57,103 nt of DNA from a virus (lineage: Duplodnaviria; Caudoviricetes), in IMG/VR virus record IMGVR_UViG_3300042430_000603, positions 1 to 57,103 of that record; one strand, written 5' to 3'. Of this stretch, positions 31,311-56,680 are shown piece by piece. The notes below the pieces were generated by a model. The model made no database searches. It saw only the letters and a program-made list of their open reading frames with translations, and was not told where the DNA came from. The position numbers and the translations under genes are program-made. Position 1 is the stretch's first letter, and each line of letters begins with the position of its first letter.

Positions 31311-31352
31311 TCCTAGGCGTCCCCTAGGTAATATTATTATAAGATATTATTA

Positions 31353-39891: not shown

Positions 39892-39892
39892 A

Positions 39893-40108: not shown

Positions 40109-40119
40109 GGAGATTTTAA

Positions 40120-41118
40120 ATGGCAACTAAATTAACAGTTGAAGAATTACAAGTAACCTCATTAGCAGCTTCTGGCGGAGTAGATTTAGCAAACTCTTAT
40201 GTAACTGTTAGCGGAACTAAATACCCTGTAGAAGTAGATGGACTAGTTACTCTTCCAACATTGGTTACAGGTCAACAAACTTACACAACTGCTGGAACTT
40301 ATACGTGGGTTGCTCCTGCTGGAGTATATGGAGTATCGGTTGTAGCCGTAGGTGGTGGTGGTGCAGGCTATGATGGATGGGCAAATCCAGCTGGTGGTGG
40401 CGCTGGCTTAGGTTGGAAAAATAATATTAAGGTAAAACCAGGAACTAGTTATGAAGTTAAAGTTGGTGCTGGTGGTTTATCTTACCCCAACACTACAAGT
40501 ACTCAAGCTTTAATGGGTGGTGGGACCAGCTACTTTAAAGATACTAGTACAGTAGCAGGTTACGGTGGAGGAAACGCTGGTGGCAGCATTCAAAATAACA
40601 ATGGACCTTCTTCCAATGGTTATGGTGGTGGATATATAGGCGATGGCGGTGGTGCTGGAGGTAATGCTACAGGTCATCCAGGTGGCGGTGGTGCTGGTGG
40701 TTATACAGGTAGAGGTTATAACCAACAAGAGACTTGGAATACTGCTAATAATGGCGGTGGCGGTGGTGGATACTATAGCTCTACTTATGGTTCAGGTGGT
40801 GGTGGTGGGGTAGGTCTTAACGGAATTACAGGATACCCTTCTCCTGGAAACCCATTTTATAATCCATTTTCAGGATATAATAATAGCTCTGGCCAAGGAA
40901 GTGGTGGTAGTGGTGCTCACGGTGGTACAAATGGAGGCTATGGTGAAAACCCATTCTCTGGGTCAGGTCAAAGCTCTAACAATATTCCTGGAGGCAACTA
41001 TGGTGGAGGCGGTGGTGGCCCAGGTAGTTCTTGGCCAAGCGCATCAGGTGATGGTGGTATAGGCGGAGTGCGTATTATTTGGGGACCAGGCCGTTCATAT
41101 CCTGGAAATGCATCATAA
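40120..41118 (+). CDS. Glycine-rich tail/fibre protein
   Basis: GTYTWVAPAGV..VSVVAVGGGGAG...GG.GGVRIIW glycine-rich domain. Confidence 0.72.
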   Translation: MATKLTVEELQVTSLAASGGVDLANSYVTVSGTKYPVEVDGLVTLPTLVTGQQTYTTAGTYTWVAPAGVYGVSVVAVGGGGAGYDGWANPAGGGAGLGWKNNIKVKPGTSYEVKVGAGGLSYPNTTSTQALMGGGTSYFKDTSTVAGYGGGNAGGSIQNNNGPSSNGYGGGYIGDGGGAGGNATGHPGGGGAGGYTGRGYNQQETWNTANNGGGGGGYYSSTYGSGGGGGVGLNGITGYPSPGNPFYNPFSGYNNSSGQGSGGSGAHGGTNGGYGENPFSGSGQSSNNIPGGNYGGGGGGPGSSWPSASGDGGIGGVRIIWGPGRSYPGNAS

Positions 41119-41126
41119 GGAATATT

Positions 41127-41573
41127 ATGGAATATATTGAAGTAGGACAAAATGAGCAACCTATTGGTGCTCCTATATTGGAAGAAAATTTAAAATACGT
41201 ATTTCCAAACTTGCATATCATACCAGAAAATATGCATGAACATGGATATCGGCCAATACTAGATAATAAACCTGAAATAACAGCTAAACAATATTTACGT
41301 AGATTACATTTTTCAAAACAAGGTGATAATTTTGTATGGAATTGGGAAATTGTTACACACGATCAAGATCATTTAACTAACTATTGTATTCGTTTTAGAA
41401 GAGATAGTGAATTAAGAGACTGTGATTGGACACAAACTTTAGATGCACCACTAAGTGCTCAAAAGAAAACTGAATGGGCAGCATATAGATCTGCTCTTCG
41501 TAATTTAACAAACTTATATCCAGCTGTAGATTTTACAACTGAAATAGAATGGCCAGTGAGACCAAGTAAATGA
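41127..41573 (+). CDS. Tail fibre assembly chaperone
   Basis: C-terminal R..RD..L...DWTQ..DAPL....K.EW..YR.ALR.L...WP..P motif; ATG 41127 has an AAGGA RBS. Confidence 0.75.
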   Translation: MEYIEVGQNEQPIGAPILEENLKYVFPNLHIIPENMHEHGYRPILDNKPEITAKQYLRRLHFSKQGDNFVWNWEIVTHDQDHLTNYCIRFRRDSELRDCDWTQTLDAPLSAQKKTEWAAYRSALRNLTNLYPAVDFTTEIEWPVRPSK

Positions 41574-42226
41574 GTGAATTTTTAAGACCAATAATGGCTA
41601 CACCACTTTTGATTGGGAAGTCGGACTTAGTATCTATCAGGGAAGAGCTTAATGCTCTTTCCTATAGTTTAAGAGATAATCTAAAAGAAGGTAGTTTAGT
41701 TTCTGAAGAATGGGATCAAGGAATAAAATCGTCTAATAAAGAAGACTTTTATAAAAGTGGAGTAACTTCTTTTAATTCAATTGAAGATTTATTTCATAAA
41801 CCAGAATGGAAAAATGTATCTGATTTTATTTTTGATTTTTCAAAAACTATGATTAATACAGTAAATCCTAATAATAAGAAAATGCATATTATTAACATGT
41901 GGACAACAATTTATCCACCAGGTGCTTTTGTACCTGAGCATGTGCATTCTAACTCATATCTTAGTGGTGTGTTCTACTCTAAGACTCCAAAGAATTGTGG
42001 AGATATTGTTTTTCATGATCCTTCATGGGTAGCCAAAACAATGTTTATGCATACTGATATGCCTACATTCCCAAATGTAGAAACTAAACATAGTATTTCT
42101 CCAGAAGAAGGATTAATGGTTATATTTCCTTCTTGGTTGCCTCATAGATCATTACCAAATAACTCTACAGAAGATAGAATCATAGTCAGTTTTAATATAG
42201 GATTTTTAGATGAGACCGATGTATAA
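41570..42226 (+). CDS. 2OG-Fe(II) oxygenase (TIGR02466-like)
   Basis: HVH...LSGVFY, G.IVFHDP, FPSWLPH and RIIVSFN motifs. Confidence 0.85.
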   Translation: MSEFLRPIMATPLLIGKSDLVSIREELNALSYSLRDNLKEGSLVSEEWDQGIKSSNKEDFYKSGVTSFNSIEDLFHKPEWKNVSDFIFDFSKTMINTVNPNNKKMHIINMWTTIYPPGAFVPEHVHSNSYLSGVFYSKTPKNCGDIVFHDPSWVAKTMFMHTDMPTFPNVETKHSISPEEGLMVIFPSWLPHRSLPNNSTEDRIIVSFNIGFLDETDV

Positions 42227-42743
42227 GTATTATGATAATGTATTATCAAAAGAAGAATGTGAATACCTAATTGAATATTCAAAAGATAAATTCGAAACTG
42301 CCACAACCCATGAACTAAAACAAAATTCTTTTAGAAGAAAAGGCAAAGTGGCTTGGATTACTCCTGAGTCTGGAGAAGAATATAATAATATAGCTAGAAA
42401 AGTAATTGATTTAATGTTTTATGAAAGTAAAGAAAGTCATTTACAAGAATTGAGTCAAATTGAAAATCTTCAAATAGCTGAATATAAATTTTTAGATCAT
42501 TACAATAAACATATAGATCTAGGTACAACTGGAAACTACAGAATACTTTCTGGAGTTGTTGAATTATCAAACCCTAAAGATTATATTGGTGGCGGATTAG
42601 AAATATTTATTTCTGATAAAAAATTTAGTATACCACTTAAACAAGGTTCTGTAGTTTTCTTTCCATCTATTTTAACTCATAGAGCTAAACCAGTATTTTA
42701 TGGATCACGTTATTCTATGTCCCTATGGGGTCATAAAAAATAA
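42210..42743 (+). CDS. 2OG-Fe(II) oxygenase (prolyl-4-hydroxylase-like)
   Basis: HID, DY.GG.L, FPS..THR..PV and R.S motifs. Confidence 0.85.
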   Translation: MRPMYKYYDNVLSKEECEYLIEYSKDKFETATTHELKQNSFRRKGKVAWITPESGEEYNNIARKVIDLMFYESKESHLQELSQIENLQIAEYKFLDHYNKHIDLGTTGNYRILSGVVELSNPKDYIGGGLEIFISDKKFSIPLKQGSVVFFPSILTHRAKPVFYGSRYSMSLWGHKK

Positions 42744-42750
42744 GTAAACA

Positions 42751-42776
42751 AACGGGGAACTTCGGTTCCCTGTTTT
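42751..42776 (+). terminator. Rho-independent terminator with cUUCGg loop
   Basis: AACGGGGAAC-TTCG-GTTCCCTGTT followed by TT. Confidence 0.75.
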
Positions 42777-42790
42777 ATTAAGGAGTTTAA

Positions 42791-43327
42791 ATGGCGTTAA
42801 GAGAATTAATTAAAGATGCACATGATAGTGCAGAGAATCATCCTTTTGTAAAGAAACTATTTGCAGGAAAAATTACAAAAGAAGAGTATGGTGACTTTTT
42901 GTTTAATCAAAAACATTGCTATGCTGCATTAGAGCAAACTGCTGAAGCATTAGGTTTATTAGATGATATTGTAACTATTAAACGTACAGCAAAGATTGCA
43001 CAAGATCTACGAGATCTAAATAGAGACAAGTCTAGACAACATTTACACATGAGCACAATGGCTTACTGTGAGTATGTCAGAAAATGTTCAAAAGAACAAT
43101 TACTTGCCCACATTTATGTCCGCCATTTTGGTGATATGTACGGTGGTCAAATGCTAAAGAAGTTAGTTCCAGGTTCTGGTTCAATGTATGAATTTTATAA
43201 TCGCACAGAACTTATTGCTATTGCTAGAGAAAAATTAACAGACGATTTAGCTGATGAAGCTAAGATAGTCTTTGCCTTTGCAACACAACTATTTGATGAG
43301 TTAGCTGATGAGCATAATATTCAGTAA
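42791..43327 (+). CDS. hemO: Heme oxygenase (biliverdin-forming)
   Basis: Proximal His in LRELIKDAHDSAE; distal helix AHIYVRHFGDMYGGQML. Confidence 0.9.
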   Translation: MALRELIKDAHDSAENHPFVKKLFAGKITKEEYGDFLFNQKHCYAALEQTAEALGLLDDIVTIKRTAKIAQDLRDLNRDKSRQHLHMSTMAYCEYVRKCSKEQLLAHIYVRHFGDMYGGQMLKKLVPGSGSMYEFYNRTELIAIAREKLTDDLADEAKIVFAFATQLFDELADEHNIQ

Positions 43328-43994
43328 ACTTGAGAAGCATACACAAGACTTTAAAGATATATTAGAGTCAAGAACTTTCTTATCTGAAGAGACTCATCCA
43401 TTCCCTTGGGAAAATAATATCTATGTTAATGCTCATGTTCGTAGAGCACACTTAGATGTAGTAGATGCTAGAGATAATAAAAAGCTTTACATGATGCACC
43501 TCTGTGTATTTCCAAAGGTCTACAGTGATGCACCTATCTACGGATTTGATCTTATTGCTGGGACTAATAAAGTTACTGGAGCATTCCATGATTTTAGTCC
43601 TTGTGGTAATAAAGATCACGAACTAGTTAAATGGTTTGCTAATGAAGTAAAAGATCAAGAATGGAGTAAACCTAGAGAACTACCTGAGTGGGCTAAGAAT
43701 ATATTTAGTTCTTCAATGGTAGCTGCTGGTAATATTAATTCTGAGTTTGAGTTAAATGAAATACTCGAGCTATCTAAAAGATCATTAGAAAAGTATTTAG
43801 ATACACTACATAAGCTAAGTAGTCGGCATAGTTATGATTATAAGATAGAAAATTTTAATTTTACTGAACAACAAAATTGGTATTGTCAAAATCAAAAGAA
43901 AAATCCTCATACACCTAGAGTAATGCAGTCTCTTGGCTTTGATGAAGAAACAGTAAACAAGTTTATTCAAGAATGTCTTTTTCCAGAGGTATAA
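43308..43994 (+). CDS. pcyX: Ferredoxin-dependent bilin reductase, PcyX/PcyA type
   Basis: RRAHLDV, MMHLCVFP, PIYGFDLIAG, AFHDFSP, RELPEWA..IFS and Q.WYC..QKKN motifs; overlaps the heme oxygenase gene. Confidence 0.82.
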   Translation: MSIIFSKLEKHTQDFKDILESRTFLSEETHPFPWENNIYVNAHVRRAHLDVVDARDNKKLYMMHLCVFPKVYSDAPIYGFDLIAGTNKVTGAFHDFSPCGNKDHELVKWFANEVKDQEWSKPRELPEWAKNIFSSSMVAAGNINSEFELNEILELSKRSLEKYLDTLHKLSSRHSYDYKIENFNFTEQQNWYCQNQKKNPHTPRVMQSLGFDEETVNKFIQECLFPEV

Positions 43995-43995
43995 T

Positions 43996-44082
43996 ATGGA
44001 ATACATTGCACTACTAACTGTACCTCCAATATTTTATTGGTATACTAAAGAATATATCAAATGGTACTGCGAAGTACATTAA
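43996..44082 (+). CDS. Putative 28-aa peptide
   Basis: GAGGT RBS, ATG...TAA, MEYIALLTVPPIFYWYTKEYIKWYCEVH; ends just before a terminator. Confidence 0.4.
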   Translation: MEYIALLTVPPIFYWYTKEYIKWYCEVH

Positions 44083-44085
44083 AAT

Positions 44086-44110
44086 GGTCACCTAAAAGGT
44101 GGCCTTTTTT
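44086..44110 (+). terminator. Rho-independent terminator closing the late/auxiliary operon
   Basis: GGTCACCT-AAA-AGGTGGCC followed by T6. Confidence 0.85.
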
Positions 44111-44202
44111 ATCAAAAAAAGTGAGAAAAATGACGTATCTATAATGAAGAAATATCATTAGATAGAGTACTCAAATCAAAGTAAACTTTTAAAGGAAATC
44201 AA

Positions 44203-44466
44203 ATGTTAAAGCTAATTATTGCAGTATCAATCGCAGTATTGTCTACTAGTGCTATGGCATCTAAGCATGAGAAGTACGTAGATATGTTAATTGAAGATGG
44301 AATAATTAAAGCAACTGATAAGGCTAAAACAATATGCCAAATGGATGCTTTAGAAGTTTCAGTCTATGCCCTTGATAAAGAAATCAAGAAAGCAAAAGAT
44401 CCTTTTACTATTAAGCCAGTAGACCCTTATAAGGTAATGGCAGTATGTAATAAGCAGCACAACTGA
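44203..44466 (+). CDS. Exported hypothetical protein (Sec signal peptide)
   Basis: MLKLIIAVSIAVLSTSAMA-type signal with an AxA cleavage site; AAGGA RBS. Confidence 0.7.
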   Translation: MLKLIIAVSIAVLSTSAMASKHEKYVDMLIEDGIIKATDKAKTICQMDALEVSVYALDKEIKKAKDPFTIKPVDPYKVMAVCNKQHN

Positions 44467-44511
44467 TGAGTCTTTATGAGACGAAACCGTTGAGAAACGG
44501 TCTTGTGTATT
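44449..44511 (+). ncRNA. Type I hammerhead ribozyme (predicted cleavage after C44502)
   Basis: Stem I CACAA/TTGTG, core CTGATGA, stem II GTCT-TTATG-AGAC, GAAA, stem III CCGTT-GAGA-AACGG, GUC cleavage triplet. Confidence 0.9.
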
Positions 44512-44536
44512 TTTTGTTAACTAACGGAGTTTTTAA

Positions 44537-44947
44537 ATGAAAAAGTTCTTAATTGTTTTGTCTTTGAGCATTGCTAGTGTTTCTTCTTTTGCAAGTGAAG
44601 CATTTTGTAAGCCTAAAGAGGTTCTCAAGGTAGGTACTTATGGTGCATTAGCAGGTGCAGCAGCTTCATTGCTTATCCCTGGCGCAGGACCAATAATTGC
44701 AACAAGTATTATAACAGGTACTATTGCAACTACTGGCAATGTAGCAGTATGTGCATTTGACGAAAAAGATCGTAGTGATAAATTAGCTTTGTTTAACAAG
44801 GCAAATGAACCTACAGCTTTTGAGAAAGCAATTGTAACGCCAGTAGAAGATCGCAATTTTAAAGATAAAGCTGTGATTGGATTTACTTATGGTTATGCAA
44901 AGGCTCATGAGGGTGTTTCAAAAGCTTATGATAATCTTACTAAATAA
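44537..44947 (+). CDS. Exported/membrane hypothetical protein
   Basis: Signal peptide MKKFLIVLSLSIASVSSFA plus a glycine-zipper-like hydrophobic segment; GGAG RBS. Confidence 0.7.
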   Translation: MKKFLIVLSLSIASVSSFASEAFCKPKEVLKVGTYGALAGAAASLLIPGAGPIIATSIITGTIATTGNVAVCAFDEKDRSDKLALFNKANEPTAFEKAIVTPVEDRNFKDKAVIGFTYGYAKAHEGVSKAYDNLTK

Positions 44948-44955
44948 GAGGATAT

Positions 44956-45051
44956 ATGTCAGAAATTATTCTTGATGTTTTATTAGCGGTTATAATTGCA
45001 CTTGTGCTAGTAGCTGCGTTACTTCATGGTTTAGATGCGTTAGTTGAATAA
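44956..45051 (+). CDS. 31-aa single-pass membrane peptide
   Basis: GAGGA RBS; MSEIILDVLLAVIIALVLVAALLHGLDALVE. Confidence 0.6.
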   Translation: MSEIILDVLLAVIIALVLVAALLHGLDALVE

Positions 45052-45060
45052 GGAATTAAA

Positions 45061-45174
45061 ATGATTTATTTTGTTTACAATAAAGCAGATGGTAGTTTAA
45101 TTACAACTATTGCCTATGTAGAAGATTTAAAATATTTTAATCCTGAACTTGTAAGTATAGTAACTTACATTTAA
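45061..45174 (+). CDS. 37-aa hypothetical protein
   Basis: AAGGA RBS; MIYFVYNKADGSLITTIAYVEDLKYFNPELVSIVTYI. Confidence 0.55.
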   Translation: MIYFVYNKADGSLITTIAYVEDLKYFNPELVSIVTYI

Positions 45175-45177
45175 GCC

Positions 45178-45252
45178 TTCTCGGATAGAGAGACCCTCTA
45201 GGGTATGTACTAGACTTTCTCAGCAGAGAGACCTCTTGGGGTAAGTACCAAG
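45178..45252 (+). repeat. Tandem pair of structured elements (hairpin + H-type pseudoknot) with compensatory changes
   Basis: TTCTC-GGATA-GAGAG-ACC-C-TCTAG-GGT-ATGTA-CTAGA and TTCTC-AGCA-GAGAG-ACC-T-CTTGG-GGT-AAGTA-CCAAG. Confidence 0.7.
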
Positions 45253-45274
45253 TTCTTTTAATTTTGGAGTTATA

Positions 45275-45520
45275 ATGAGTAAATTTCTTTTGTTAAACCC
45301 ACTGTATGGCGATAACTTCGGATGTACAGCGCAAGAAATCATTGAATCATTAGAGGAATTTGGTCTTACTTATATCTTCTCAAATGACACTAAAGGTATA
45401 CCAGCAGTTTATGCTACTAGTACATCTAAAGAGTTAATTGAAAGAATGTGTACTGAAGTTGAACTTGATGGATCTATCATTGAGTTTACTTCAATTTATG
45501 ATCAACTAATTGAGGATTGA
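45275..45520 (+). CDS. Hypothetical protein
   Basis: 81-aa acidic ORF with GGAG RBS. Confidence 0.65.
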   Translation: MSKFLLLNPLYGDNFGCTAQEIIESLEEFGLTYIFSNDTKGIPAVYATSTSKELIERMCTEVELDGSIIEFTSIYDQLIED

Positions 45521-45777
45521 TTATGCCTAGACTAACTTTAAAAGCAGGTGATTACACTATTGAAGCCATTCAATACAATGCCTTTGACTCTGTTGAAGTA
45601 ATTGTGTATGATGACTTTTTACAAGCGATAGTATCCCCTTCATTATATGATGTTAAATCAGCTTATATGACTGGGGAAACTATAGCTTCTGTTATTACAG
45701 AGTCTGCTGAAGACTTTCGTAGAATTTTTAAAGCAGTTGAAGACTTAGTCTTTGTAGATAAGAAACTTGGAGTTTAA
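45517..45777 (+). CDS. Hypothetical protein
   Basis: ORF coupled to its neighbours; GAGGA RBS; start may be ATG 45523. Confidence 0.6.
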   Translation: MIMPRLTLKAGDYTIEAIQYNAFDSVEVIVYDDFLQAIVSPSLYDVKSAYMTGETIASVITESAEDFRRIFKAVEDLVFVDKKLGV

Positions 45778-45778
45778 A

Positions 45779-46018
45779 ATGTGCAATAAATGCTTATTTA
45801 ATCCTTCACCAGTTAAAATTGCAGATGAAGAAGGTTATGTTTACCATGTAGGTAAAGAAATTTATAATTATGTTAAGGCTAAATATGAGCCACATTCTTT
45901 AGATTTTTTTAACCAAGTGGGTGCAGAACTAGATCTCTGGAAAGTTAACCCTTTAGCAAATGTTAATCAACGATTTAAGAGAATTGGTCATGTCAACACA
46001 ATCAGGAACAGCAGGTAG
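45779..46018 (+). CDS. Hypothetical protein
   Basis: ATG 45779 after GGAG; begins with CxxC. Confidence 0.55.
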   Translation: MCNKCLFNPSPVKIADEEGYVYHVGKEIYNYVKAKYEPHSLDFFNQVGAELDLWKVNPLANVNQRFKRIGHVNTIRNSR

Positions 46019-46190
46019 AACTAAGAAGTTTAATACATTCCAAATTCTATGCGTAGAATGGTTTATGTATTTTGTGATATTAGTGTTACTAGATGGAAAC
46101 AACAACAGCATTGAAGAATGTGCTGGTGGTGCTTTTATGCTATTAGCATTAATTAGGATTTTCCTTTTTATTAAGAAGCAAAAATCTTAA
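45990..46190 (+). CDS. Small two-helix membrane protein
   Basis: Two hydrophobic segments; start uncertain (45960 or 45990). Confidence 0.5.
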   Translation: MSTQSGTAGRTKKFNTFQILCVEWFMYFVILVLLDGNNNSIEECAGGAFMLLALIRIFLFIKKQKS

Positions 46191-46215
46191 CACTCCCTGC
46201 CAGCGGGAGTATAAT
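46187..46215 (+). promoter_or_regulatory. Sigma70-like host promoter upstream of the RNAP operon
   Basis: TTAACA-17 nt-TATAAT (5/6 and 6/6 consensus). Confidence 0.6.
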
Positions 46216-46224
46216 CTAGCTGGC
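46192..46224 (+). other. H-type pseudoknot / nested inverted repeats
   Basis: S1 ACTCCC/GGGAGT, L1 = T, S2 GCCAGC/GCTGGC, L3 = ATAATCTA. Confidence 0.55.
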
Positions 46225-46262
46225 TTTTCTTATCAAAAATAATAATAATAATAAGGATATTT

Positions 46263-46361
46263 ATGAGCGTTTGGAAAGCTTGTTTGGTTGTTGGTTTAAT
46301 CTTCTTAGCACGGAAGGTTGTTAATTACATGGAGGCTGCAGAGGTAGAAGTAAAAGAGTGA
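46263..46361 (+). CDS. 32-aa peptide coupled to the RNAP gene
   Basis: AAGGA RBS; MSVWKACLVVGLIFLARKVVNYMEAAEVEVKE; its TGA overlaps the RNAP GTG start (GTGA). Confidence 0.55.
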   Translation: MSVWKACLVVGLIFLARKVVNYMEAAEVEVKE

Positions 46362-48538
46362 ATACTATGACAACTATTCTTGAAAAATTAGTAGCTGATC
46401 TTAGTGCTAGACAGTCTGTATTAAGGGCTGATCGAAATATTTATACTCATTACTTAAAAGATGTTGATTCTAAATTATTAGTTGATATATCTTATCCCCA
46501 TGTATTACGAGGTTTAGAAAGAAGAGGTACATTAGTTGACATTATTGCAACTATTGGTCGTAGAGTTAGGCAAGTGTTAAGCTTACCCAATGATACTATC
46601 TCTGATGCACAAGTAGGTTGGTTTGTTTGCATTGCTTATATTGAATGTGGCGTACTTTCTTTTAAACTAAAGTATACTTACAAGAATGGTAAGAAAAGCA
46701 AATATCAAGCTTACTTCTTTCAAGTTAAAGATTGGAAGGCAATCAAAGAACTTTGGGGTTTAATTGATCAAACTAAGGTAGATATCTTTCCTATGAGAGA
46801 AAAACCTGAATATTGGAAATCACCCCATAACAATCTAGGAGTACCAATTATTAAGAAAGGTCATTCCACAGCATTAGAACAGTTTAAGAAAAATGATAAA
46901 CAAACATTGTATGACATTTTAAATAAACTACAAGATACTGGGTGGAGGATTAATAAAGATGTATTTAAAGTATATCAATATTTTCTTCATAAGGAAAATG
47001 ACAATAGCCCTTTTAAATTACACTCTGAGATTGATGAAGAGAAAAAGAAATCATTAATGATTGAAGCAGAAGCTATTGAACAATTAGCTATGAGTCATTT
47101 AGATAATGCTTTCTATCACGTATACAATTTTGACTTTCGTGGTCGTGTATATGTTAATACTGCATTTTTACATGAGCAATCTAGTGACAATGCAAAAGGT
47201 TTACTTTTGTTAGATCAAGCTACACCTCTTGGTGAAAATGGTTTATTCTGGTTAAAAGTACATACCTCTAATTCTTTTGGAAATGATAAAGTTACGCTAA
47301 AACAGAGAGCAGAATTTGTAGATGAGAATATTAATTTATTCTTATCCTATGCAGAAAAACCAACTATTAATCAAGGTTGGACTGGCACTGATGCTCCCTT
47401 CTCTTTTTTAGCTGCTTGTAATGAACTTAAGAAAATTAAAGAATGGCTGATGTTAGGAAATAAATTAGAAGATTATGAATGTTCACTACCTGTGTATATT
47501 GATGGTTCTAATAATGGTGTTCAACATCTAGTAGCCATGTCTCAAGACGAAGAGATTGCCCCATTAGTAAATTTAGTTCCACAAGAGCTTCCTGGTGATG
47601 TCTACATGTATATTGCAAGATATGTATGGGAACACCTACAAGAAATGGCAGACAAATTAACACCTGAAGAAAGAGGTCAGTTTGATTCTGTTTATAGTAA
47701 AGCTAAAGAACTACAAAAAGCATATTTTGATGCACCTGAAAAGACAGAGCAAAAAGCATTAGCCTATGCTGCTGCCCAAGAATGGCGTAATCAAAATAGA
47801 GCAATCCGAGAAAAATTATTTCCTGTTTACTGGCTTAAAATTGATAATCCTAAAGATCAACGTAAAGTAGTAAAAAGAAATGTAATGACACTCGGTTACG
47901 GTGGTACTGCATATGGCATGGGTCAACAAATTATTGATGACACTCGTGATATGTCTGAATATCTTCGTGACAAAGAACATCTTTGGGGTGCATTGCTAGG
48001 TGATTTAGTATTTCAGACTTGTTATGAAAAGCTAAAAGGACCAGCTACTATGCTACGTATGTTTCAGGATCTTGCACAAAGATCTAATGAAAAAGATGTG
48101 TTCTTAAAATGGACTACACCTGTAACTAACTTTCCAGTTGTTCAGGCATATCGTAAGCCATCTATTATACGTACTAAGTTGAAGTATGGTGAAGAAGAAT
48201 TAAAAGTTCAACTTCAAACTTGGGAGGAAGCAACTATTAATAAAGATTCCCAAAAGACAGGTGCTGCACCAAATATTGTGCATAGCTTTGATGCTGCCCA
48301 CTTGACAATGACTGTTGTATCTGCACCCTATGAGATGACTGTTGTCCATGATTCTTTTGGTACTTTACCAGGACGTATGGATGATTTGTTTTATAGAGTA
48401 AGAGAACAGTTTGTAGAATTTTACAAGGCTAAACCTCTTGAAAAATTGCTTGCTGAACTTGACTGTAAAGACCTTATCCCTGAAAGGGGTAATCTAGATG
48501 TCGGTCAAATTGTGTATTCTGATTATGCTTTTTGTTAA
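46358..48538 (+). CDS. T7-like single-subunit DNA-directed RNA polymerase
   Basis: DFRGRVY, motif A DGSNNGVQH, motif B RKVVKRNVMTLGYG, PNIVHSFDAAHL, motif C VHDSF; C-terminus SDYAFC resembles T7 SDFAFA. Confidence 0.95.
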   Translation: MNTMTTILEKLVADLSARQSVLRADRNIYTHYLKDVDSKLLVDISYPHVLRGLERRGTLVDIIATIGRRVRQVLSLPNDTISDAQVGWFVCIAYIECGVLSFKLKYTYKNGKKSKYQAYFFQVKDWKAIKELWGLIDQTKVDIFPMREKPEYWKSPHNNLGVPIIKKGHSTALEQFKKNDKQTLYDILNKLQDTGWRINKDVFKVYQYFLHKENDNSPFKLHSEIDEEKKKSLMIEAEAIEQLAMSHLDNAFYHVYNFDFRGRVYVNTAFLHEQSSDNAKGLLLLDQATPLGENGLFWLKVHTSNSFGNDKVTLKQRAEFVDENINLFLSYAEKPTINQGWTGTDAPFSFLAACNELKKIKEWLMLGNKLEDYECSLPVYIDGSNNGVQHLVAMSQDEEIAPLVNLVPQELPGDVYMYIARYVWEHLQEMADKLTPEERGQFDSVYSKAKELQKAYFDAPEKTEQKALAYAAAQEWRNQNRAIREKLFPVYWLKIDNPKDQRKVVKRNVMTLGYGGTAYGMGQQIIDDTRDMSEYLRDKEHLWGALLGDLVFQTCYEKLKGPATMLRMFQDLAQRSNEKDVFLKWTTPVTNFPVVQAYRKPSIIRTKLKYGEEELKVQLQTWEEATINKDSQKTGAAPNIVHSFDAAHLTMTVVSAPYEMTVVHDSFGTLPGRMDDLFYRVREQFVEFYKAKPLEKLLAELDCKDLIPERGNLDVGQIVYSDYAFC

Positions 48539-48541
48539 GTT

Positions 48542-48564
48542 TACCAGGGTACGCTAAAGCACTA
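48542..48564 (+). promoter_or_regulatory. SP6/T7-like phage RNAP promoter, copy 3 (predicted +1 = G48559)
   Basis: TACCAGGGTACGCTAAA|G, one mismatch to copies 1-2; starts 4 nt after the RNAP stop, upstream of SSB/replication genes. Confidence 0.72.
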
Positions 48565-48630
48565 ACGTATGCAAAATCAATTGTATACTAAATATTAAAA
48601 ATGAAATTATAATTAAGGAAACTAAAACCT

Positions 48631-49131
48631 ATGGCTATTTTAAAAAATGTTGAGTTATTCTGGGCACAATTAGACCCCAAGAGACCTAATTCTAAATTTA
48701 ACAAAGAACAACCTACATGGGATGTTCAGATTCGCACTCGAGACAAGAAAGTTAAAGCAGAATGGGTAGCACTCAACTTAAAGCCCAAAACAGTAGAAGA
48801 TGATGATGGAGTATTTTATTCTGTAACTCTTCGTAAAAAGTCTAAAAAGAAAGATGGTGCTGACAATCAACCAGTAACTGTAGTTGATGGTTCTTTGACT
48901 GCAATTGATCCTGCTAGTATTGGTAATGGCTCTATTGCTAATGTAAAGATTTTTCAGTATGAGTATCCACCAGAGAATAAGATTGCATCTATGCTAATGG
49001 CTGTGCAGATTACTAAGTTGAAAGAATATATCCCTAGATCTTCTGGTGATGACTTTGAACTTACTGAAACAGAGATTGTAAGGGTAGCAGATGCAAATGG
49101 TAGTGATGACTTTGAAGATAGTCCTTATTAA
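48631..49131 (+). CDS. Single-stranded DNA-binding protein (T7 gp2.5-like)
   Basis: IGNGS.ANV...L.AVQI..L.EY motifs and an acidic C-terminal tail ending in an aromatic residue. Confidence 0.75.
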   Translation: MAILKNVELFWAQLDPKRPNSKFNKEQPTWDVQIRTRDKKVKAEWVALNLKPKTVEDDDGVFYSVTLRKKSKKKDGADNQPVTVVDGSLTAIDPASIGNGSIANVKIFQYEYPPENKIASMLMAVQITKLKEYIPRSSGDDFELTETEIVRVADANGSDDFEDSPY

Positions 49132-49139
49132 TTAACAAC

Positions 49140-49165
49140 TAGGGGACTTAGGTCTCCTATTTTAT
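49140..49165 (+). terminator. Terminator-like hairpin between SSB and the tRNAs
   Basis: TAGGGGAC-TTAG-GTCTCCTA followed by TTTTAT. Confidence 0.6.
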
Positions 49166-49167
49166 CA

Positions 49168-49242
49168 GGGATAATAGCTTAATGGTAAAGCAGTCGACTC
49201 ATAATCGATTGAGTGTAGGTTCAATTCCTACTTATCCCACCA
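49168..49242 (+). tRNA. tRNA with CAT anticodon, probably tRNA-Ile2 (lysidine, reads AUA) rather than Met
   Basis: Full cloverleaf: GGGATAA/TTATCCC acceptor stem, CTCATAA anticodon loop, encoded CCA. G1-C72 pair (not an initiator); anticodon arm resembles E. coli Ile2 (CGACTCATAATCG). Confidence 0.85.
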
Positions 49243-49244
49243 CA

Positions 49245-49319
49245 CTCTCTTTAGTTCAATGGATAGAACAGTAACCTTCTAAGTTATTAATGTAGGTTCG
49301 ATTCCTACAAGAGGGACCA
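49245..49319 (+). tRNA. tRNA-Arg(TCT)
   Basis: CTCTCTT/AAGAGGG acceptor stem, GTAAC-CTTCTAA-GTTAT anticodon arm, GGTTCGATTCC T-arm, encoded CCA. Confidence 0.92.
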
Positions 49320-49340
49320 CTTTAAAATTAAAAGGATAAA

Positions 49341-49544
49341 ATGTTTAAAACAAGTTTTTGGGTAGCAGCAGCAGATGGGAGTTTAAATGCTGATAAGTTT
49401 ATTTGCACACACGATGTACCCTATTTATTTAAAGAAGGTGATAAAGTAATATTGGTTCAACTAGGTGATCCTGTAATTGTGGATTTTATAATTCATGATT
49501 TATATGACAAAGTAATTAATGTATTTGTAAAAGAGATTTTATAA
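49341..49544 (+). CDS. Hypothetical protein
   Basis: 67 aa with AAGGA RBS. Confidence 0.6.
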   Translation: MFKTSFWVAAADGSLNADKFICTHDVPYLFKEGDKVILVQLGDPVIVDFIIHDLYDKVINVFVKEIL

Positions 49545-49681
49545 TGGCTAAAAAAATTGGAAAAGAAACAGTTAAGGGCATTGTTAAACGAACTTCACAA
49601 GGTGGTTCACGACCTAAAACATCAACAATGACCAAGACACAACGTCGATCATTCAAACGCTATCGAGGACAAGGTAAATGA
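49544..49681 (+). CDS. 45-aa basic protein with C-terminal KRYRGQGK
   Basis: MAKKIGKETVKGIVKRTSQGGSRPKTSTMTKTQRRSFKRYRGQGK; TAATG/ATGA coupling; absent from the supplied ORF track. Confidence 0.7.
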   Translation: MAKKIGKETVKGIVKRTSQGGSRPKTSTMTKTQRRSFKRYRGQGK

Positions 49682-49857
49682 ATAATTTTATTGCTGGTTT
49701 AGTTGGCTTAACTATTTTAGTTGCATCTATCTATGGATGGATAGCAAACTTTATAGCTATTCTGGCTATGAATGCTGATACCCAAGTTGGTTGGATTATC
49801 GGTCGTATAATTGGAGTATTTGTACCTTTCATTGGAGCAGTTCTTGGTTACTTCTGA
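49678..49857 (+). CDS. 59-aa membrane protein
   Basis: MNNFIAGLVGLTILVASIYGWIANF...GRIIGVFVPFIGAVLGYF, two hydrophobic helices; ATGA coupling. Confidence 0.7.
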   Translation: MNNFIAGLVGLTILVASIYGWIANFIAILAMNADTQVGWIIGRIIGVFVPFIGAVLGYF

Positions 49858-50086
49858 ATACACCATAACATTCACTGATTCTATTAGTGAATTTGAAATG
49901 TTACTTTTGTGTAAACTTGGAGATGATTTTTCATATAATGAGGATTATACTGTTTGCACAATTGAATCATTAATGGGAGAACGAGAATTTATTAGAGAGA
50001 TTGCAGATTTAGTTGATGTAGAAAACATTGGATTAATTCAACATCTTGTAACTATGGAACCAGATTGGTTAAATTTTAAGTCATAA
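49844..50086 (+). CDS. Hypothetical protein
   Basis: Acidic ORF; start uncertain, but TTG 49844 has GGAG 6 nt upstream. Confidence 0.5.
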   Translation: MVTSEYTITFTDSISEFEMLLLCKLGDDFSYNEDYTVCTIESLMGEREFIREIADLVDVENIGLIQHLVTMEPDWLNFKS

Positions 50087-50388
50087 TGATTGCATACAAA
50101 CTATTTAAGAAACGTAAAGATGGAACTTATGGTCCATTATTTATTAATCGTAAACAGAAAATACAAAAAGGTGTTCTATATGGAGCAGAATCGCATCCTA
50201 CTGTTGGCTACGCTTATCGCCCTGGGTGGCATTGCTGTTCTACTCCTAATGCGCCTCACTTGAGTTACAAAGAGCGAGTATGGTGCAGGGTAGAGATTCA
50301 AGACTACAATAGACATCAAAGACCACATAATCAAGGCGGTTTATGGTATACCGCTAATTACATGCGTATTTTAGAAGAAATTTTATGA
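50086..50388 (+). CDS. Hypothetical phage protein
   Basis: 100 aa, YKLF...GPLFIN...RPGWHC...PHL; coupled to its neighbours. Confidence 0.65.
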   Translation: MIAYKLFKKRKDGTYGPLFINRKQKIQKGVLYGAESHPTVGYAYRPGWHCCSTPNAPHLSYKERVWCRVEIQDYNRHQRPHNQGGLWYTANYMRILEEIL

Positions 50389-50798
50389 AACAAAGAACAG
50401 TATATTTAGCAGGTCCAATGGAACATGTTTCTATTGAAGATGCAAAAGGATGGAGAACAATTGCTACTGATTTACTATTACAAGCAGATCAGAAGGTATT
50501 AGACCCTACTCGTAGAGTTCATGAATTCCAACCTAAATATATGAAACGTATATTTGAGTTAGATCTTCGTGATATTCAAGAATCAGATTTAATCCTTGTT
50601 AATTTAGATAACCCTACAATTGCTAAACACGGTACTGCAATGGAAGTCTTTTATGCTTCTTATGTATTACGAAAACCAGTAGTTGCATTTAAAGCTAATG
50701 CTTCTACTATCCACCCTTTCTTTGAGTCTCTAGTCACAGAGTGGAGATCTACAGTAGACAAAGCTTGTGACACTATTATTACGGAGTATTTAGATTAA
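50385..50798 (+). CDS. Nucleoside 2-deoxyribosyltransferase / nucleotide N-glycosidase family
   Basis: VYLAGPM, DL.DI..SD.ILVNL and GT.ME..YA...KPVV motifs. Confidence 0.8.
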   Translation: MKQRTVYLAGPMEHVSIEDAKGWRTIATDLLLQADQKVLDPTRRVHEFQPKYMKRIFELDLRDIQESDLILVNLDNPTIAKHGTAMEVFYASYVLRKPVVAFKANASTIHPFFESLVTEWRSTVDKACDTIITEYLD

Positions 50799-51061
50799 TG
50801 CCTTATATTCGACAAGACTTTAAACAGTTCTTACATACAAAAAGTGTAGCTGAGGTTGGTGATTTATGCACTAGCCCTGGTGAGTTAAACTTTGTTATTA
50901 CTTCTATTGTACGAGATTATTTTAATCGTACAGATAAAGGTAATTATCAAGCAATTAACGATATTGTAGGTGCTTTAGAGGGTGCCAAGATAGAATTCTA
51001 TCGTAGAGTAGCTGCACCGTATGAAGATAAAAAGATTCAAGAAAATGGAGATGTATACTAA
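50798..51061 (+). CDS. Conserved phage hypothetical protein
   Basis: MPYI...GELNF.IT...GALE.AK.EFYRR..APYED.KI.ENGDVY. Confidence 0.7.
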   Translation: MPYIRQDFKQFLHTKSVAEVGDLCTSPGELNFVITSIVRDYFNRTDKGNYQAINDIVGALEGAKIEFYRRVAAPYEDKKIQENGDVY

Positions 51062-51249
51062 TGAAATTTACTCTTAATACTATCTCAGAAAATGAAGATG
51101 GTAGTGCAAATGTAGTACTAGATTTAGATAACGAAGCAAGAGAATATCTTCTGAATTATGCATTTATAAGAATGCTAAAAGATGCTATTGCTGAAGGTAA
51201 TTTATATAAAGTAGATGAGGATAAAGTTGATGTACGTACCGATTTATGA
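51061..51249 (+). CDS. Hypothetical protein
   Basis: 62 aa, ENEDGSA motif, coupled start. Confidence 0.6.
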   Translation: MKFTLNTISENEDGSANVVLDLDNEAREYLLNYAFIRMLKDAIAEGNLYKVDEDKVDVRTDL

Positions 51250-51832
51250 AATATATTCATATGGTAAAAACCGTGGTGTAGTAGCAACCTATAATGACTT
51301 TGAACATGCTGTTACTGCATGGAAAGACAATATGGATTTCTTTACTATTAAATGCGTTTGGCCTACTAGTGTAAAGAATCGTTCTAAGGAATTAAATCAT
51401 ATTGGCTCGATAAATGACTATCGTAATTTGTTAAATGAGTGGGCAATTGAAGATGGTGATGACGAATGGGAAGTAGATCAACTTATGAAATATTTAAAAG
51501 AAAATCCACCAACAGTAGAGAACACTATTCTTAATCCTAACTACCAGAGTGCTATTAATCCTAGCCACTATCAGAGTTATATAATGGATTTACAATGGTT
51601 AGAGACTATGCAGTATCTACCAAGCTTTAGGAATCCTGATTGCTTTAAGGCAGCAGTTGAACTACAAGTACGAAAGTATCTAGATCGCCTTGGCGGTAAA
51701 GATGCTGAAGAACAAGAATTAGGTAAAGCATTATGGTATTTAAAATTCCTACTTGCTTACACTAAGAACAATAATCAACCAATCCGAATTAAAGATATAG
51801 AAAAATTATTAAATGAGCAATCTAGTATTTGA
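51215..51832 (+). CDS. DUF3310-like (T7 gp1.7 nucleotide kinase-related) domain protein
   Basis: C-terminal INPSHY...KYL.R.G.KD...QEL.KA.WYL motif. Confidence 0.65.
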   Translation: MRIKLMYVPIYEIYSYGKNRGVVATYNDFEHAVTAWKDNMDFFTIKCVWPTSVKNRSKELNHIGSINDYRNLLNEWAIEDGDDEWEVDQLMKYLKENPPTVENTILNPNYQSAINPSHYQSYIMDLQWLETMQYLPSFRNPDCFKAAVELQVRKYLDRLGGKDAEEQELGKALWYLKFLLAYTKNNNQPIRIKDIEKLLNEQSSI

Positions 51833-53690
51833 CATCGAAAGTGATGGTCTACTAGACACTGTAAGTAAAGTTTGGATGATTGTGACAAATGATACTAGTA
51901 CTGGTGAAGAGTTAATCTTTACCGACTATGATCCACAATATCCAAGCTTAGAGCAAGGCTTACAACACCTATCGAAAGCAACAAGTTTAATTGGCCACAA
52001 TATTATTGGCTATGATTTACTTGTTCTCCGAAAACTATACAATTGGATTCCAAATAAAGAAACTAAATTATATGATACGATGTTACTATCGCAAGTCATT
52101 AATTATGATCGATTTAATGGAAAGCATTCTCTAGCTGTATGGGGTGAATACCTTGGTCATAGTAAGGTCGAGCATGAGGACTGGAGTCAGTACTCAACCG
52201 ACATGCTACATCGGTGTAGAGAAGACGTAAAAATCAACGTTAAGGTCTATAGAGGTCTTATTAAAGAATTAAAAGGTATGACTGAGAAAAAGCCATATCT
52301 TAAAACTTCTATTAAAAATGAGCACCTTACTGCACAATTTTGTGCTGATGCAGAATATATAGGATGGCAATTTGACAAAGATGCTGCAACAAAACTATTG
52401 GCTGCGATGGAAGCTCAAATGGAAGAAGTTCAATCCATTATTGAGCCACGACTTAGTACAGAAACTAAAGTCTTGGATAAACAACCTAAAATACCAAAGT
52501 GGATTAAGAACGGTAATTATGATGCCGTTACTGCTAGATATTTTAATATTGATCCTTCTAATGGCAGGGATGATCGTATGGTAGAGGGTCCATATCAACG
52601 ATTTGAATATGTACAACCTGATTTAGGTAATATTGATTCAGTTAAATTATATTTACACAAAATTGGTTGGGAGCCTGACGACTGGAATTGGAAAAAACAA
52701 GGTAATGAATTTATTAAAGTATCTGAAAAGCTAACTACTAGTTCACTAGAAAAGTTAGGCGAAGTAGGAATGCTAATTGATAAATATTACACTACTAGGT
52801 CTAGGCATTCTATTTTGTCTGGATGGTTGGAGTCTTTAGATGAGAATAACAGATTACATGGTAGTTGTTTTACTATCTCTACTCCAACTGGTCGTGCTAG
52901 ACATAGTGGTATTGTCAATGTTCCAGGTGCTGATTCCGAATGGGGTCCAGATATTCGTAAATTATTTATGGCTACTCCTGGGTATGCAATTATTGGCGCT
53001 GACTCTTCTGGTAATCAATTTAGAGCTTTATGTCATTATCTAAAGAATGATGAATATACTAATGAAGTTTTAAATGGAGATGTGCATCAAAAGAATGCAG
53101 ATGTACTAACAGCTGTAATGACAGAGGAACAATCTAAGTTTCCTAAGATTATTAAAGACCCTACTGTATCTCGTAAATTAGCAAAGCCATTCATTTATGC
53201 TTATTTGTTTGGTGCTGGTGGTGAGAAGGTTTCTTTAATTTTAACTGGTGTTCGTAATGCTAAACTTGGTAATAAGATTAAAGCTGAGTTTGCAAAACGT
53301 ATTCCAGGACTAGATTCATTGATTAAGCGTATTAATGCTGTTTATAACCAAACAGAATTACGTGGCAGTCCTTGGATTCCTGCACTTGATGGTAGAAAGA
53401 TTCCTTGTGAATCTGCTCATAAGTCTCTCAATTATCTGTTACAGAGTTGTGAAGCTATTACATGTAAAGCAGCTACTGCTCTTACTTATGTTAGACTCCA
53501 AGAGGAGAACATACCATTCAATCCATTGATATTTTATCATGACGAGATTGAATTTGAAGTCCCTATCGAGTATGCTGAACGAGCTTCTGCGATTGCTAAA
53601 AAGGCTTTCCAAGATGGTCCAAAGTTATTTGGTGTTGATATTATGGATGGTGAGTCCAAAATCGGTAATAACTGGTATGATGTACATTAA
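51813..53690 (+). CDS. DNA polymerase, family A (T7-like) with 3'-5' exonuclease
   Basis: FDIESDGL, GHNIIGYD, TPTGRARH, motif A DSSGNQFR, motif B RKLAKPFIYAYLFG, motif C YHDE. Confidence 0.95.
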   Translation: MSNLVFDIESDGLLDTVSKVWMIVTNDTSTGEELIFTDYDPQYPSLEQGLQHLSKATSLIGHNIIGYDLLVLRKLYNWIPNKETKLYDTMLLSQVINYDRFNGKHSLAVWGEYLGHSKVEHEDWSQYSTDMLHRCREDVKINVKVYRGLIKELKGMTEKKPYLKTSIKNEHLTAQFCADAEYIGWQFDKDAATKLLAAMEAQMEEVQSIIEPRLSTETKVLDKQPKIPKWIKNGNYDAVTARYFNIDPSNGRDDRMVEGPYQRFEYVQPDLGNIDSVKLYLHKIGWEPDDWNWKKQGNEFIKVSEKLTTSSLEKLGEVGMLIDKYYTTRSRHSILSGWLESLDENNRLHGSCFTISTPTGRARHSGIVNVPGADSEWGPDIRKLFMATPGYAIIGADSSGNQFRALCHYLKNDEYTNEVLNGDVHQKNADVLTAVMTEEQSKFPKIIKDPTVSRKLAKPFIYAYLFGAGGEKVSLILTGVRNAKLGNKIKAEFAKRIPGLDSLIKRINAVYNQTELRGSPWIPALDGRKIPCESAHKSLNYLLQSCEAITCKAATALTYVRLQEENIPFNPLIFYHDEIEFEVPIEYAERASAIAKKAFQDGPKLFGVDIMDGESKIGNNWYDVH

Positions 53691-53701
53691 CTGGGAATAA
53701 A

Positions 53702-54340
53702 ATGTATAACGATATAAATGATAGAATTAAAAAAGCACTTTTAGAATCTCTTTCTTTAAAGACTGAAATGAAAAATAAAACTATTGAATCACAGAAAAAC
53801 TGTGCTCATGCAGCATTAAACATGTTACATATTGTGGACCCTTATTCTTGTATTCTAGGTGGAGCACCACGAGACTGGGCATTAGGTAACCCTGCAAAGG
53901 ATTTAGATATCTATATTCATGGGTATCCTAATGAGTCTAGAGATAGTATCAAAGACAGAATATCACAAGCATTAGAGCTTCAAGCTGATGAATTAGAAGA
54001 TGTAACAAATAATTCTTATTATACACATAGTTTAGATAATGGAGTTGTTGGTGTATTAAACGTAAAAAATTGTTTTATGCCAATTCAAATTGTATTATGT
54101 GATAGACAACCAATTGAGATGTTAAACACATTTCATGGAAGTTTGTCTAAAGCTTCTTATACTCGTGGTTATTATTGGGATTATTTAACTAATTCGGAAG
54201 ATTATGAATTAGACACTAGTGTAGAGTTTGACATTAGTAAAGAATTCAAAGTTCATTTAATTAGAAAGAATGATGATCCAAAGTATATAGCTAAAATTAA
54301 AGCTAAATACCCTGAATTTACACACATACACGAATCATGA
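53702..54340 (+). CDS. Nucleotidyltransferase (CCA-adding/poly(A) polymerase head-like)
   Basis: LGGAPRD...KDLDI signature. Confidence 0.75.
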   Translation: MYNDINDRIKKALLESLSLKTEMKNKTIESQKNCAHAALNMLHIVDPYSCILGGAPRDWALGNPAKDLDIYIHGYPNESRDSIKDRISQALELQADELEDVTNNSYYTHSLDNGVVGVLNVKNCFMPIQIVLCDRQPIEMLNTFHGSLSKASYTRGYYWDYLTNSEDYELDTSVEFDISKEFKVHLIRKNDDPKYIAKIKAKYPEFTHIHES

Positions 54341-54828
54341 ACATTTTTTATTTAGACAAAAACCAAACAGAATGTGCTAAGGCTCACTATGATTCTCATG
54401 TAGTAAAGATGATTCTTGAGTCAGCACAGTTATTATCTACCGCCCATCATCTAGTTGGTGATGGTGGGCCTTACAAAAAGACACATGACAATCATCCTTC
54501 TGCTGTTTGGGTTCGTAGTAGTATTAAGCATTATATGTGGCTTTATATTCTTATGGAAGAACTTGGTAAAGAGTATACTCACCGATTTGGAAAAGTACAT
54601 AAAACTATTTTAGATCATTCAGGTACACTTTCTAGTTTTCCAAGGGACATTAAAGCAGAAGATTGGCAAGATCCTCCCTTAGCCATGCCAGATCATTGTA
54701 AGTTAAATGATACAGTTGAATCATATCGAAATTATTATTTAACTGAAAAAATAAATTTAATGCGATATACAAATAGAGATGCACCTTCATGGTTACAAAA
54801 GAAGATCGCTACGATTCCCTGTATTTAG
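54337..54828 (+). CDS. Pyrimidine-dimer DNA glycosylase-like protein (DenV-related)
   Basis: MNIFYLD...HVVKMILESAQLLST...HPS..W...YRNYY motifs. Confidence 0.72.
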   Translation: MNIFYLDKNQTECAKAHYDSHVVKMILESAQLLSTAHHLVGDGGPYKKTHDNHPSAVWVRSSIKHYMWLYILMEELGKEYTHRFGKVHKTILDHSGTLSSFPRDIKAEDWQDPPLAMPDHCKLNDTVESYRNYYLTEKINLMRYTNRDAPSWLQKKIATIPCI

Positions 54829-56679: not shown

Positions 56680-56680
56680 A

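Follow-up and report, generated by a model that had tools for sequence, protein, structure and literature searches.

Two T7-type RNA polymerases, one of them fused to a MuF head protein, and a possible transcription relay in a long-tailed lake-water phage

The DNA analysed here, referred to throughout as the window, is a linear virus contig of 57,103 nucleotides (nt; virus record IMGVR_UViG_3300042430_000603) with an estimated completeness of 78%, in which two genes encode RNA polymerases (RNAPs) of the single-subunit T7 type. All sizeable open reading frames (ORFs) on the ORF map are on the plus strand, in the order portal, MuF fusion, major head protein, tape-measure, large tail proteins, auxiliary genes, small ORFs, free-standing RNAP, two tRNAs and T7-like replication genes; the tape-measure gene points to a long tail. 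One polymerase is a free-standing protein of 726 amino acids (aa), encoded on the plus strand at 46358 to 48538, and the other is part of a 1473-aa MuF minor-head protein, encoded on the plus strand at 2267 to 6688. An initial annotation made from the letters of the window had placed a free T7-like RNAP between small early-type genes and the replication genes, and this was confirmed, with five small ORFs lying 5' and replication genes lying 3' of the gene. The fusion gene is preceded directly by the portal gene (355 to 1995, plus strand; DUF4055, 4.6e-09), whose syntenic counterpart in roseophage DSS3_VP1 is annotated 'putative portal protein', and is followed by the major head protein gene (7471-8565; phrog_247). 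DSS3_VP1 and DSS3_PM1 (Naomviridae, Noahvirus), both cultured, are the nearest named phages.

The free-standing polymerase matched PF00940 with 268.1 bits against a cut-off of 22 (E 1.7e-79) and phrog_414 with an E-value of 1.2e-131, and its closest solved relative among PDB sequences was T7 RNAP (1.7e-61). On this evidence the ORF looks intact and encodes a member of the T7-type single-subunit family. The start used here is a GTG at 46358, which overlaps by 4 nt the stop of a hydrophobic 32-aa ORF (46263 to 46361, plus strand); a similar small ORF lies 5' of the RNAP gene in close relatives. Since relatives align only from residue 4-7, an ATG at 46367, giving 723 aa, would be an equally plausible start. 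The protein contains the motifs DFRGR, DGSNNG, RKVVKRNVMTLGYG and VHDSFG, and a C-terminal YAFC. In an alignment with the enzymes of T7, DSS3_VP1 and Pelagibacter phage Kolga, residues D382, R502, K506, Y514, H664, D665 and D259-R261-G262-R263 were invariant; they represent the motif A and C Asp, the motif B Arg/Lys/Tyr/Gly and DxRGR, motif C reading His-Asp. At 726 aa against the 883 aa of T7 RNAP, the enzyme lacks 157 aa, in agreement with the N-terminal deficit of about 150 aa that had been proposed: in a four-sequence alignment most of the missing residues were N-terminal (T7 ~4-72), with several shorter blocks in addition. The stretch aligned to the region of the AT-rich recognition loop of T7, in the N-terminal promoter-binding domain, is shortened. 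Taken alone the 726-aa enzyme is ordinary, and its DSS3_VP1 homologue has already been annotated 'RNA polymerase'.

MuF is a common portal-associated head protein, which in other phages can carry toxin domains. The fusion protein consists of a MuF domain (aa 1-342), a low-confidence linker (aa 343-356), a helical middle part (aa 357-700) and a polymerase domain (aa 701-1473; nt 4367-6688). It matched PF04233 at aa 136-239 (4.5e-12, 47.1 bits, cut-off 29.6) and the head morphogenesis family phrog_241 (2.4e-52), and was the sole MuF-domain protein found in the window, standing between the portal and major head genes. The PF00940 match of its polymerase domain, at aa 1054-1424, was weak, although above the threshold (3.1e-06, 26.7 bits, cut-off 22). 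An AlphaFold2 model of aa 701-1473, made from 25 sequences, had a predicted local distance difference test score (pLDDT) of 89.9 and a predicted template modelling score (pTM) of 0.86, and its best Foldseek match was T7 RNAP 3e2e_A (E 1.1e-19, TMq 0.60, ~825 aligned columns). All matches listed for the first 50 ranks when the model was searched against PDB structures were T7 or mitochondrial RNAPs. A profile of the fusion family aligned to T7 RNAP with an hhalign probability of 96.7%; against N4 gp50 the probability was 0.3% (E 0.21), with no detectable similarity. Residues D370, K435, K438, Y446, G447 and D688 were invariant in 25 fusion-family sequences of 18-58% identity, and they cover the motif A Asp, the motif B Lys/Tyr/Gly and the motif C Asp. 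The polymerase domain of the fusion is therefore confidently modelled as a full T7 fold, with its catalytic residues kept. A catalytically dead enzyme, which the initial annotation had named as an outcome that would speak against its interpretation, is not what these alignments suggest for either polymerase, as the catalytic residues are retained in both.

The model of aa 1-700 of the fusion had a pLDDT of 81.8, falling below 50 in the linker, and a fold search with it against the PDB gave 0 matches at an E-value of 0.001 or better; the MuF and middle domains are therefore without a solved structural relative by that search. The fusion family is small, with 133 representative clusters at an E-value of 0.001 or better among 1.84 billion proteins, and MuF was present in 6/6 sampled full-length relatives. 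The fusion gene is split by an insert in one related record (G006, about 39458-40401) and in EBPR siphovirus 1 gp48, where the insert is an HNH endonuclease gene.

The motif differences that had been noted between the two enzymes were all found, the free one having DGSNNGVQH and RKVVKRNVMTLGYG, and the 1473-aa fusion DASSSGAQI and QKAAKAQNMVSFYG. The two polymerases are ~21% identical (BLASTP E 0.003). A polymerase phylogeny, which the initial annotation had proposed as a check, was built by a quick search from 24 rows and 647 columns; mitochondrial and Xp10 polymerases were left out, and the Xanthomonas Pradovirus enzyme (pXoo2106) in the tree is no stand-in for Xp10. Eight fusion domains formed one group, with a Shimodaira-Hasegawa-like approximate likelihood ratio test (SH-aLRT) value of 95, and 14 free enzymes formed another (SH-aLRT 97). 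These separate clades argue that the two polymerases are not the product of a recent duplication, as had been claimed. The free enzyme of the window clustered with its relatives, apart from five Autographiviridae enzymes, and N4 RNAPII fell on the free-enzyme side of the tree. N4 gp50 was placed beside the fusion group on a branch 4.56 long, a placement flagged as unreliable.

Both polymerase genes were found in all five related virus records that are at least 90% complete, in one of which the free enzyme is only 33% identical to that of the window. They were also found together in three of five further records, the two misses being 43% and 39% complete, and in the roseophages DSS3_VP1 and DSS3_PM1. 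Phage Kolga encodes a related free enzyme (28% identity) and a 633-aa MuF protein that matches only residues 5-341 of the fusion, and therefore has no polymerase on its MuF protein.

Two classes of promoter-like element, here called class L and class E, were recognised when the intergenic stretches were read through; a whole-window repeat search returned coding repeats only, and Rfam at gathering thresholds found the two tRNAs and nothing else in the window. Class L reads TTTACCAGGG[G/T]ACGCTAAAG, with the core ACCAGGGKACGCTAAAG. It occurs three times in the window, always intergenic and always on the gene strand, against 0 expected from shuffles. The copy TTTACCAGGGTACGCTAAAG, at 48540 to 48559 on the plus strand, starts 2 nt 3' of the RNAP stop codon. 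The others, also on the plus strand, lie in the structural region (10414 to 10433) and the tail region (31286 to 31305), and each is followed by an inverted repeat. These inverted repeats (10434-10460 and 31306-31331) are the class L core inverted, with arms that differ in sequence between the two; the copy just past the RNAP stop codon lacks a clear one. When class L was compared with the SP6 promoter, taken from the SP6 record, 10/13 positions from -12 to +1 were equal. Class L was found 24-25 nt 3' of the RNAP gene end in 17/17 related loci with an RNAP identity of at least 82%, and T7's own first promoter lies 26 nt 3' of gene 1. DSS3_VP1 has at least eight gene-strand copies of a class L variant, ATAGGGTGCGTTAAAG or GGTGACGTTAAAG. 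In the complete relative G002, five intergenic copies (7540, 28510, 51872, 52494 and 69415) precede the replication, packaging and head, and tail blocks, and the fusion gene of that relative (61275-65693) lies downstream of the copies at 51872 and 52494. Judged by its sequence, class L is clearly a repeated, contiguous promoter-like motif of ~20 nt and of the T7/SP6 kind.

Class E is present in the window as one copy, at 44116 to 44151 on the plus strand, and consists of an A-run, GTGAGAAAA, 8 variable nt and ATCTATAATGAAGAA. It lies directly 3' of a terminator-like hairpin and T-run (44086 to 44104, plus strand), which closes the late structural and auxiliary block, and 5' of the small early-type ORFs (44203 to 46190, plus strand) that the ORF map places between it and the RNAP gene; the hairpin has the same arrangement in DSS3_VP1 and G002. 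None of the five ORFs at 44203-46018 had a PHROG match. Relatives have 1-3 copies of class E, at a distance of 1.2-8.9 kb on the upstream side of the RNAP gene, which narrows to 1.7-2.7 kb in close relatives. A strict pattern found the element at 16 of 32 RNAP loci, and relaxed patterns added L023, L027, L029, L030, L032, G011, G013 and DSS3_VP1. It was not found in five Kolga-like loci or in an 18.7-kb stretch of the Kolga record. In 20 distinct instances the conserved parts were the A-run and GTGRG and, beyond an 8-nt spacer of variable sequence, an invariant CTATAATGA running into AGAA; the core is identical in the window and DSS3_VP1, despite proteins that are only ~50% identical. Since the conservation extends 8 nt beyond the TATAAT of the element, as well as ~20 nt upstream of it, and no -35-like hexamer was found 16-18 nt from that box, class E would fit a promoter for a single-subunit polymerase better than a sigma-70 promoter.

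A further hairpin with a T-run (TTTTCTTATCAAAAA) and a TATAAT box, possibly an attenuator or another promoter, separate the early ORFs from the RNAP gene at 46191 to 46239 on the plus strand. A candidate sigma-70 promoter at 46187-46215 (11/12 matches) was rejected, as its -35 part varies in relatives and its -10 part is sometimes CTAAT; at this site relatives keep the hairpin, the T-run and a TATAAT-like box, but not the -35-like hexamer. A sigma-70 scan of 40000-57103 gave no signal, with 70 sites found and 75.4 expected. A third terminator-like hairpin (49140 to 49159, plus strand) follows the first gene downstream of the RNAP gene. At these three sites, which are the end of the late block, the stretch before the RNAP gene and the stretch after the first gene behind it, each hairpin is followed by a T-run and then by ATCA(A) (window positions 44105, 46225 and 49160), and G002 has ATCA(A) hairpins at the same three places (23799, 26196 and 29139). 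This arrangement may be a terminator signature for phage polymerases; a loose hairpin/T-run/ATCA pattern has many chance sites in AT-rich DNA, and only three matches follow hairpins. Within the early region, 45175-45270 contains two adjacent units of ~37 nt, each with AGAGAGACC and small hairpin potential, just 5' of the ORF at 45275-45520; a gapless pattern search for this tandem motif found nothing.

The two motif classes are located at the positions that a transcription relay needs, and we favour a two-step programme in which a capsid-borne fusion enzyme would transcribe the early genes and the newly made 726-aa enzyme the middle and late genes. We put the probability of this reading at roughly 0.57. 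The fusion protein would be made late, incorporated at the portal of the capsid and ejected together with the DNA; as its gene is a late one, stands next to the portal gene and joins the polymerase to the only MuF homologue, incorporation into the capsid and ejection are the simplest reading of this arrangement. Once in the cell, the fusion polymerase, as the most likely reader of class E, would transcribe the early unit headed by GTGAGAAAA-N8-ATCTATAATGAAGAA right after the late terminator, and with it the 726-aa polymerase gene. The new polymerase, presumably a working enzyme, would most likely initiate at class L (core ACCAGGGKACGCTAAAG), where the copy 2 nt past its own gene heads the replication genes and the others precede structural genes. 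The assignment of each enzyme to its motif, like the independence of the whole programme from the host polymerase, is something we infer.

An alternative is a programme of the T7 style, in which the host RNAP reads class E to give the early proteins and the 726-aa polymerase, while the polymerase of the fusion has another job, such as drawing in the DNA, priming replication or serving an unseen promoter class. The T7 early region, gene 1 included, is read by the host polymerase, and an E. coli promoter is annotated just 5' of gene 1; the exact TATAAT that follows an A-rich tract in class E, and the further TATAAT box 140 nt 5' of the RNAP gene, would suit a similar arrangement here. We nevertheless regard it as rather unlikely, given that class E has no -35-like hexamer at the expected distance and is conserved on both sides of its TATAAT, that a phage infecting the marine alphaproteobacterium Ruegeria and lake-water phages of 35% G+C have the same element, and that the best sigma-70-like site (46187) has no conserved -35 part among relatives. 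The polymerase half of the fusion might also never be delivered, being cleaved off or working only in the producing cell, for example as a late-gene polymerase, so that the phage would have two intracellular polymerases. That the fusion gene lies in the late block and has class L motifs upstream would agree with this, as would the low-confidence linker after MuF (aa 343-356) as a possible cleavage site, but a purely intracellular polymerase has no obvious reason to stay on a portal-associated head protein, the fusion to the only MuF homologue is kept in 6/6 sampled distant relatives and in all complete records, and a third promoter class was not found; we consider non-delivery improbable. Most improbable is that one polymerase is decaying or redundant, or that both read the same promoters. 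The low Pfam score of the fusion (26.7 bits) and its motif B, which begins with Q where T7 has R, could be taken in that sense, yet the catalytic residues are invariant across the 25 family members, the model is a confident full T7 fold, lineages with no more than 33% identity between their free polymerases keep both genes, and there are two distinct motif classes.

Several observations weigh against the two-step relay itself. The TATAAT of class E is a perfect bacterial -10 consensus, which leaves room for the host polymerase, and the hairpin, T-run and TATAAT box that separate the early ORFs from the RNAP gene mean that this gene is perhaps not simply part of the class E unit. Class L has only three copies in 57 kb, two of them within inverted repeats, so that a second role is possible. 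The distant record G005 has both polymerases, but no class E element was found there, and a de novo search of it for repeated 12-mers yielded no clear promoter family, the only repeat that it turned up being a 69-nt tandem one at the contig ends. The free enzyme was found in just two of 16 fusion-bearing fragments (30-86% complete); the 14 fragments without it are 30-75% complete, and because the fragments are partial and the two genes are ~44 kb apart, these misses are considered uninformative rather than contrary. Virion proteomics, transcript ends and enzyme assays for members of this lineage were not found in the literature, and the main text of the Naomviridae paper has no mention of 'RNA polymerase', 'RNAP', 'MuF' or 'virion'.

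Near-identical DNA was found in 23 lake-water metagenome runs (24 runs were listed, 23 of DNA and one metatranscriptome). The metatranscriptome run holds 0.10 of the sampled words, and 31 pieces of its contigs, at 90-99% likeness, fall on 40000-57103; these contigs carry no start, strand or level information, and DNA may be in the library. The 'direct terminal repeat' of G005 (1-250 and 81396-81522; L134, L138) lies within the 69-nt tandem repeat array, so that the call may stem from the array and not from genuine genome ends.

The tape-measure protein (2045 aa, 11765-17902) has an internal lysozyme-like domain with the Pfam label 'Pesticin' (3.6e-29). The 906-aa ORF at 32281-35001 consists mostly of Ala/Ser/Thr-rich repeats with a 21-nt periodicity, in dozens of copies, and is probably a fibre-like tail or decoration protein. 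An auxiliary cluster at 41570-43994 closes the late block, with two 2-oxoglutarate-Fe(II) oxygenase-like genes and a gene (43308-43994) that matches the PHROG 'ferredoxin oxidoreductase' family. Downstream of the free RNAP gene are the two tRNAs, nucleotide-metabolism genes, a family A DNA polymerase and a 5'-3' exonuclease, and the window ends (56680-57103) in what appears, by eye, to be the start of a primase-helicase gene. In this region the gene at 50385-50798 is nucleoside 2-deoxyribosyltransferase-like, 53702-54340, beside the DNA polymerase gene, has a weak nucleotidyltransferase (poly A polymerase head) match, and a SegE-like GIY-YIG gene (56057-56503) in the replication block is a sign of homing-endonuclease traffic. 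The deaminase at 54789-55202 (dCMP/dCTP-deaminase-like) shares 36% identity with the enzyme that supplies deoxyuridine (dU) in DSS3_VP1. Neither ThyA or ThyX nor an HD-domain hydrolase was found in any of five records, these being the window and the complete relatives G001, G002, G003 and G005; the deoxythymidine monophosphate (dTMP) phosphatase of DSS3_VP1 is reported to be an HD hydrolase (PMC12697855).

No published description was found of a design with a MuF-fused and a free T7-type RNAP, in a search that did not extend to the supplementary gene tables of Rihtman 2021. Relays of a virion-carried and then a newly made polymerase are known from N4, jumbo phages and P23-45, each with another type of enzyme or another carrier; what differs from these is that both enzymes have the T7 fold and that MuF would be the carrier. 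If the relay is real, MuF would carry a complete T7-fold polymerase belonging to a deep and small lineage, and T7-type enzymes would have a second, independent route into virions. It would also give the transcription strategy of a globally distributed phage family with cultured members that have dU-DNA, and would provide two new orthogonal polymerase/promoter pairs for biotechnology. The relay is directly testable, as cultures exist of both DSS3_VP1 and its host, Ruegeria pomeroyi DSS-3.

Compared with the DSS3 phages, the free RNAP of the window is 50% identical over 99% of the length and the fusion 48% identical over the whole length. DSS3_VP1 shares the gene order of portal, fusion, head genes, early ORFs, RNAP and T7-like DNA polymerase, as well as variants of the class E and class L motifs. 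The annotations given to the fusion in the DSS3 phages go no further than 'minor head protein-like' or 'head morphogenesis'; in DSS3_VP1 the accession of the fusion is QGH74596.1 and that of the free enzyme QGH74624.1. The differences are that the proteins are about half identical, and that the window, with 32-42% G+C, is of lake-water origin. At such a distance the phage of the window would be Naomviridae-like but not of the same genus as DSS3_VP1. The DSS3 roseophages are reported to have dU in place of deoxythymidine and to be siphovirus-like in appearance (PMC8323127).

In T7 and SP6 (Autographiviridae) all catalytic motifs are common to the 726-aa enzyme, the candidate class L promoter resembles that of SP6, and the promoter right after the polymerase gene is an arrangement shared with T7. 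The 726-aa enzyme differs in lacking 157 aa, mostly of the N-terminal promoter-binding domain, and in belonging to a long-tailed phage of roughly 77 kb. N4 (Schitoviridae) likewise has two enzymes of the single-subunit class: its virion RNAP, gp50, is carried in the particle for the early genes, and RNAPII (gp15/gp16) is made early for the middle genes. The cascade that the initial annotation drew by analogy to N4 is supported in part, by the presence of two single-subunit RNAPs, by the two motif classes at relay positions and by the conservation of the pair; the analogy does not extend to kinship with N4 gp50, since the hhalign probability was 0.3% and the listed fold matches are T7 and mitochondrial enzymes. 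The carrier here would be a 1473-aa MuF fusion, whereas that of N4 is a 3500-aa protein; the window has a tape-measure gene, hence a long tail; and the late genes of N4 use the host polymerase, whereas here class L precedes late genes. The resemblance to N4 is thus functional only, and not one of sequence or fold. Iyer 2017 reports virion RNAPs only in N4-like phages.

The closest published precedent is P23-45, a long-tailed Thermus phage, which is reported to have a virion RNAP fused to the tail tape-measure protein and a non-virion RNAP, gp64 (PMC10770324). Its virion RNAP reads the pre-early genes, among them the one that encodes the second polymerase; each of the two enzymes is directed by a DNA motif of its own, and relatives without the fusion also lack the first motif (PMC10770324). 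The polymerases of P23-45 are of the two-barrel cellular type and the carrier is the tape-measure protein, whereas here both have the T7 fold and the carrier would be MuF. Bacillus phage AR9, a jumbo phage with dU-DNA, is similarly reported to have one polymerase in the virion and to make another (PMC5312081, PMC7598289); its promoter recognition reportedly involves dU (PMC9209446), and its enzymes differ in being multisubunit homologues of the bacterial polymerase. By analogy, dU-DNA might be linked to a need for polymerases of the phage's own. It is conceivable, although we hold this broader view with some doubt, that a widespread group of aquatic long-tailed phages, among them the cultured dU-DNA Naomviridae, transcribe their genomes wholly without the host polymerase, using a MuF-tethered, ejected T7-fold enzyme on an invariant early promoter and an early-made enzyme on SP6-like middle and late promoters, perhaps in connection with a uracil genome that the host polymerase reads poorly. 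Such a system would be an independently arisen, single-subunit counterpart of the polymerase pairs of N4, P23-45 and AR9.

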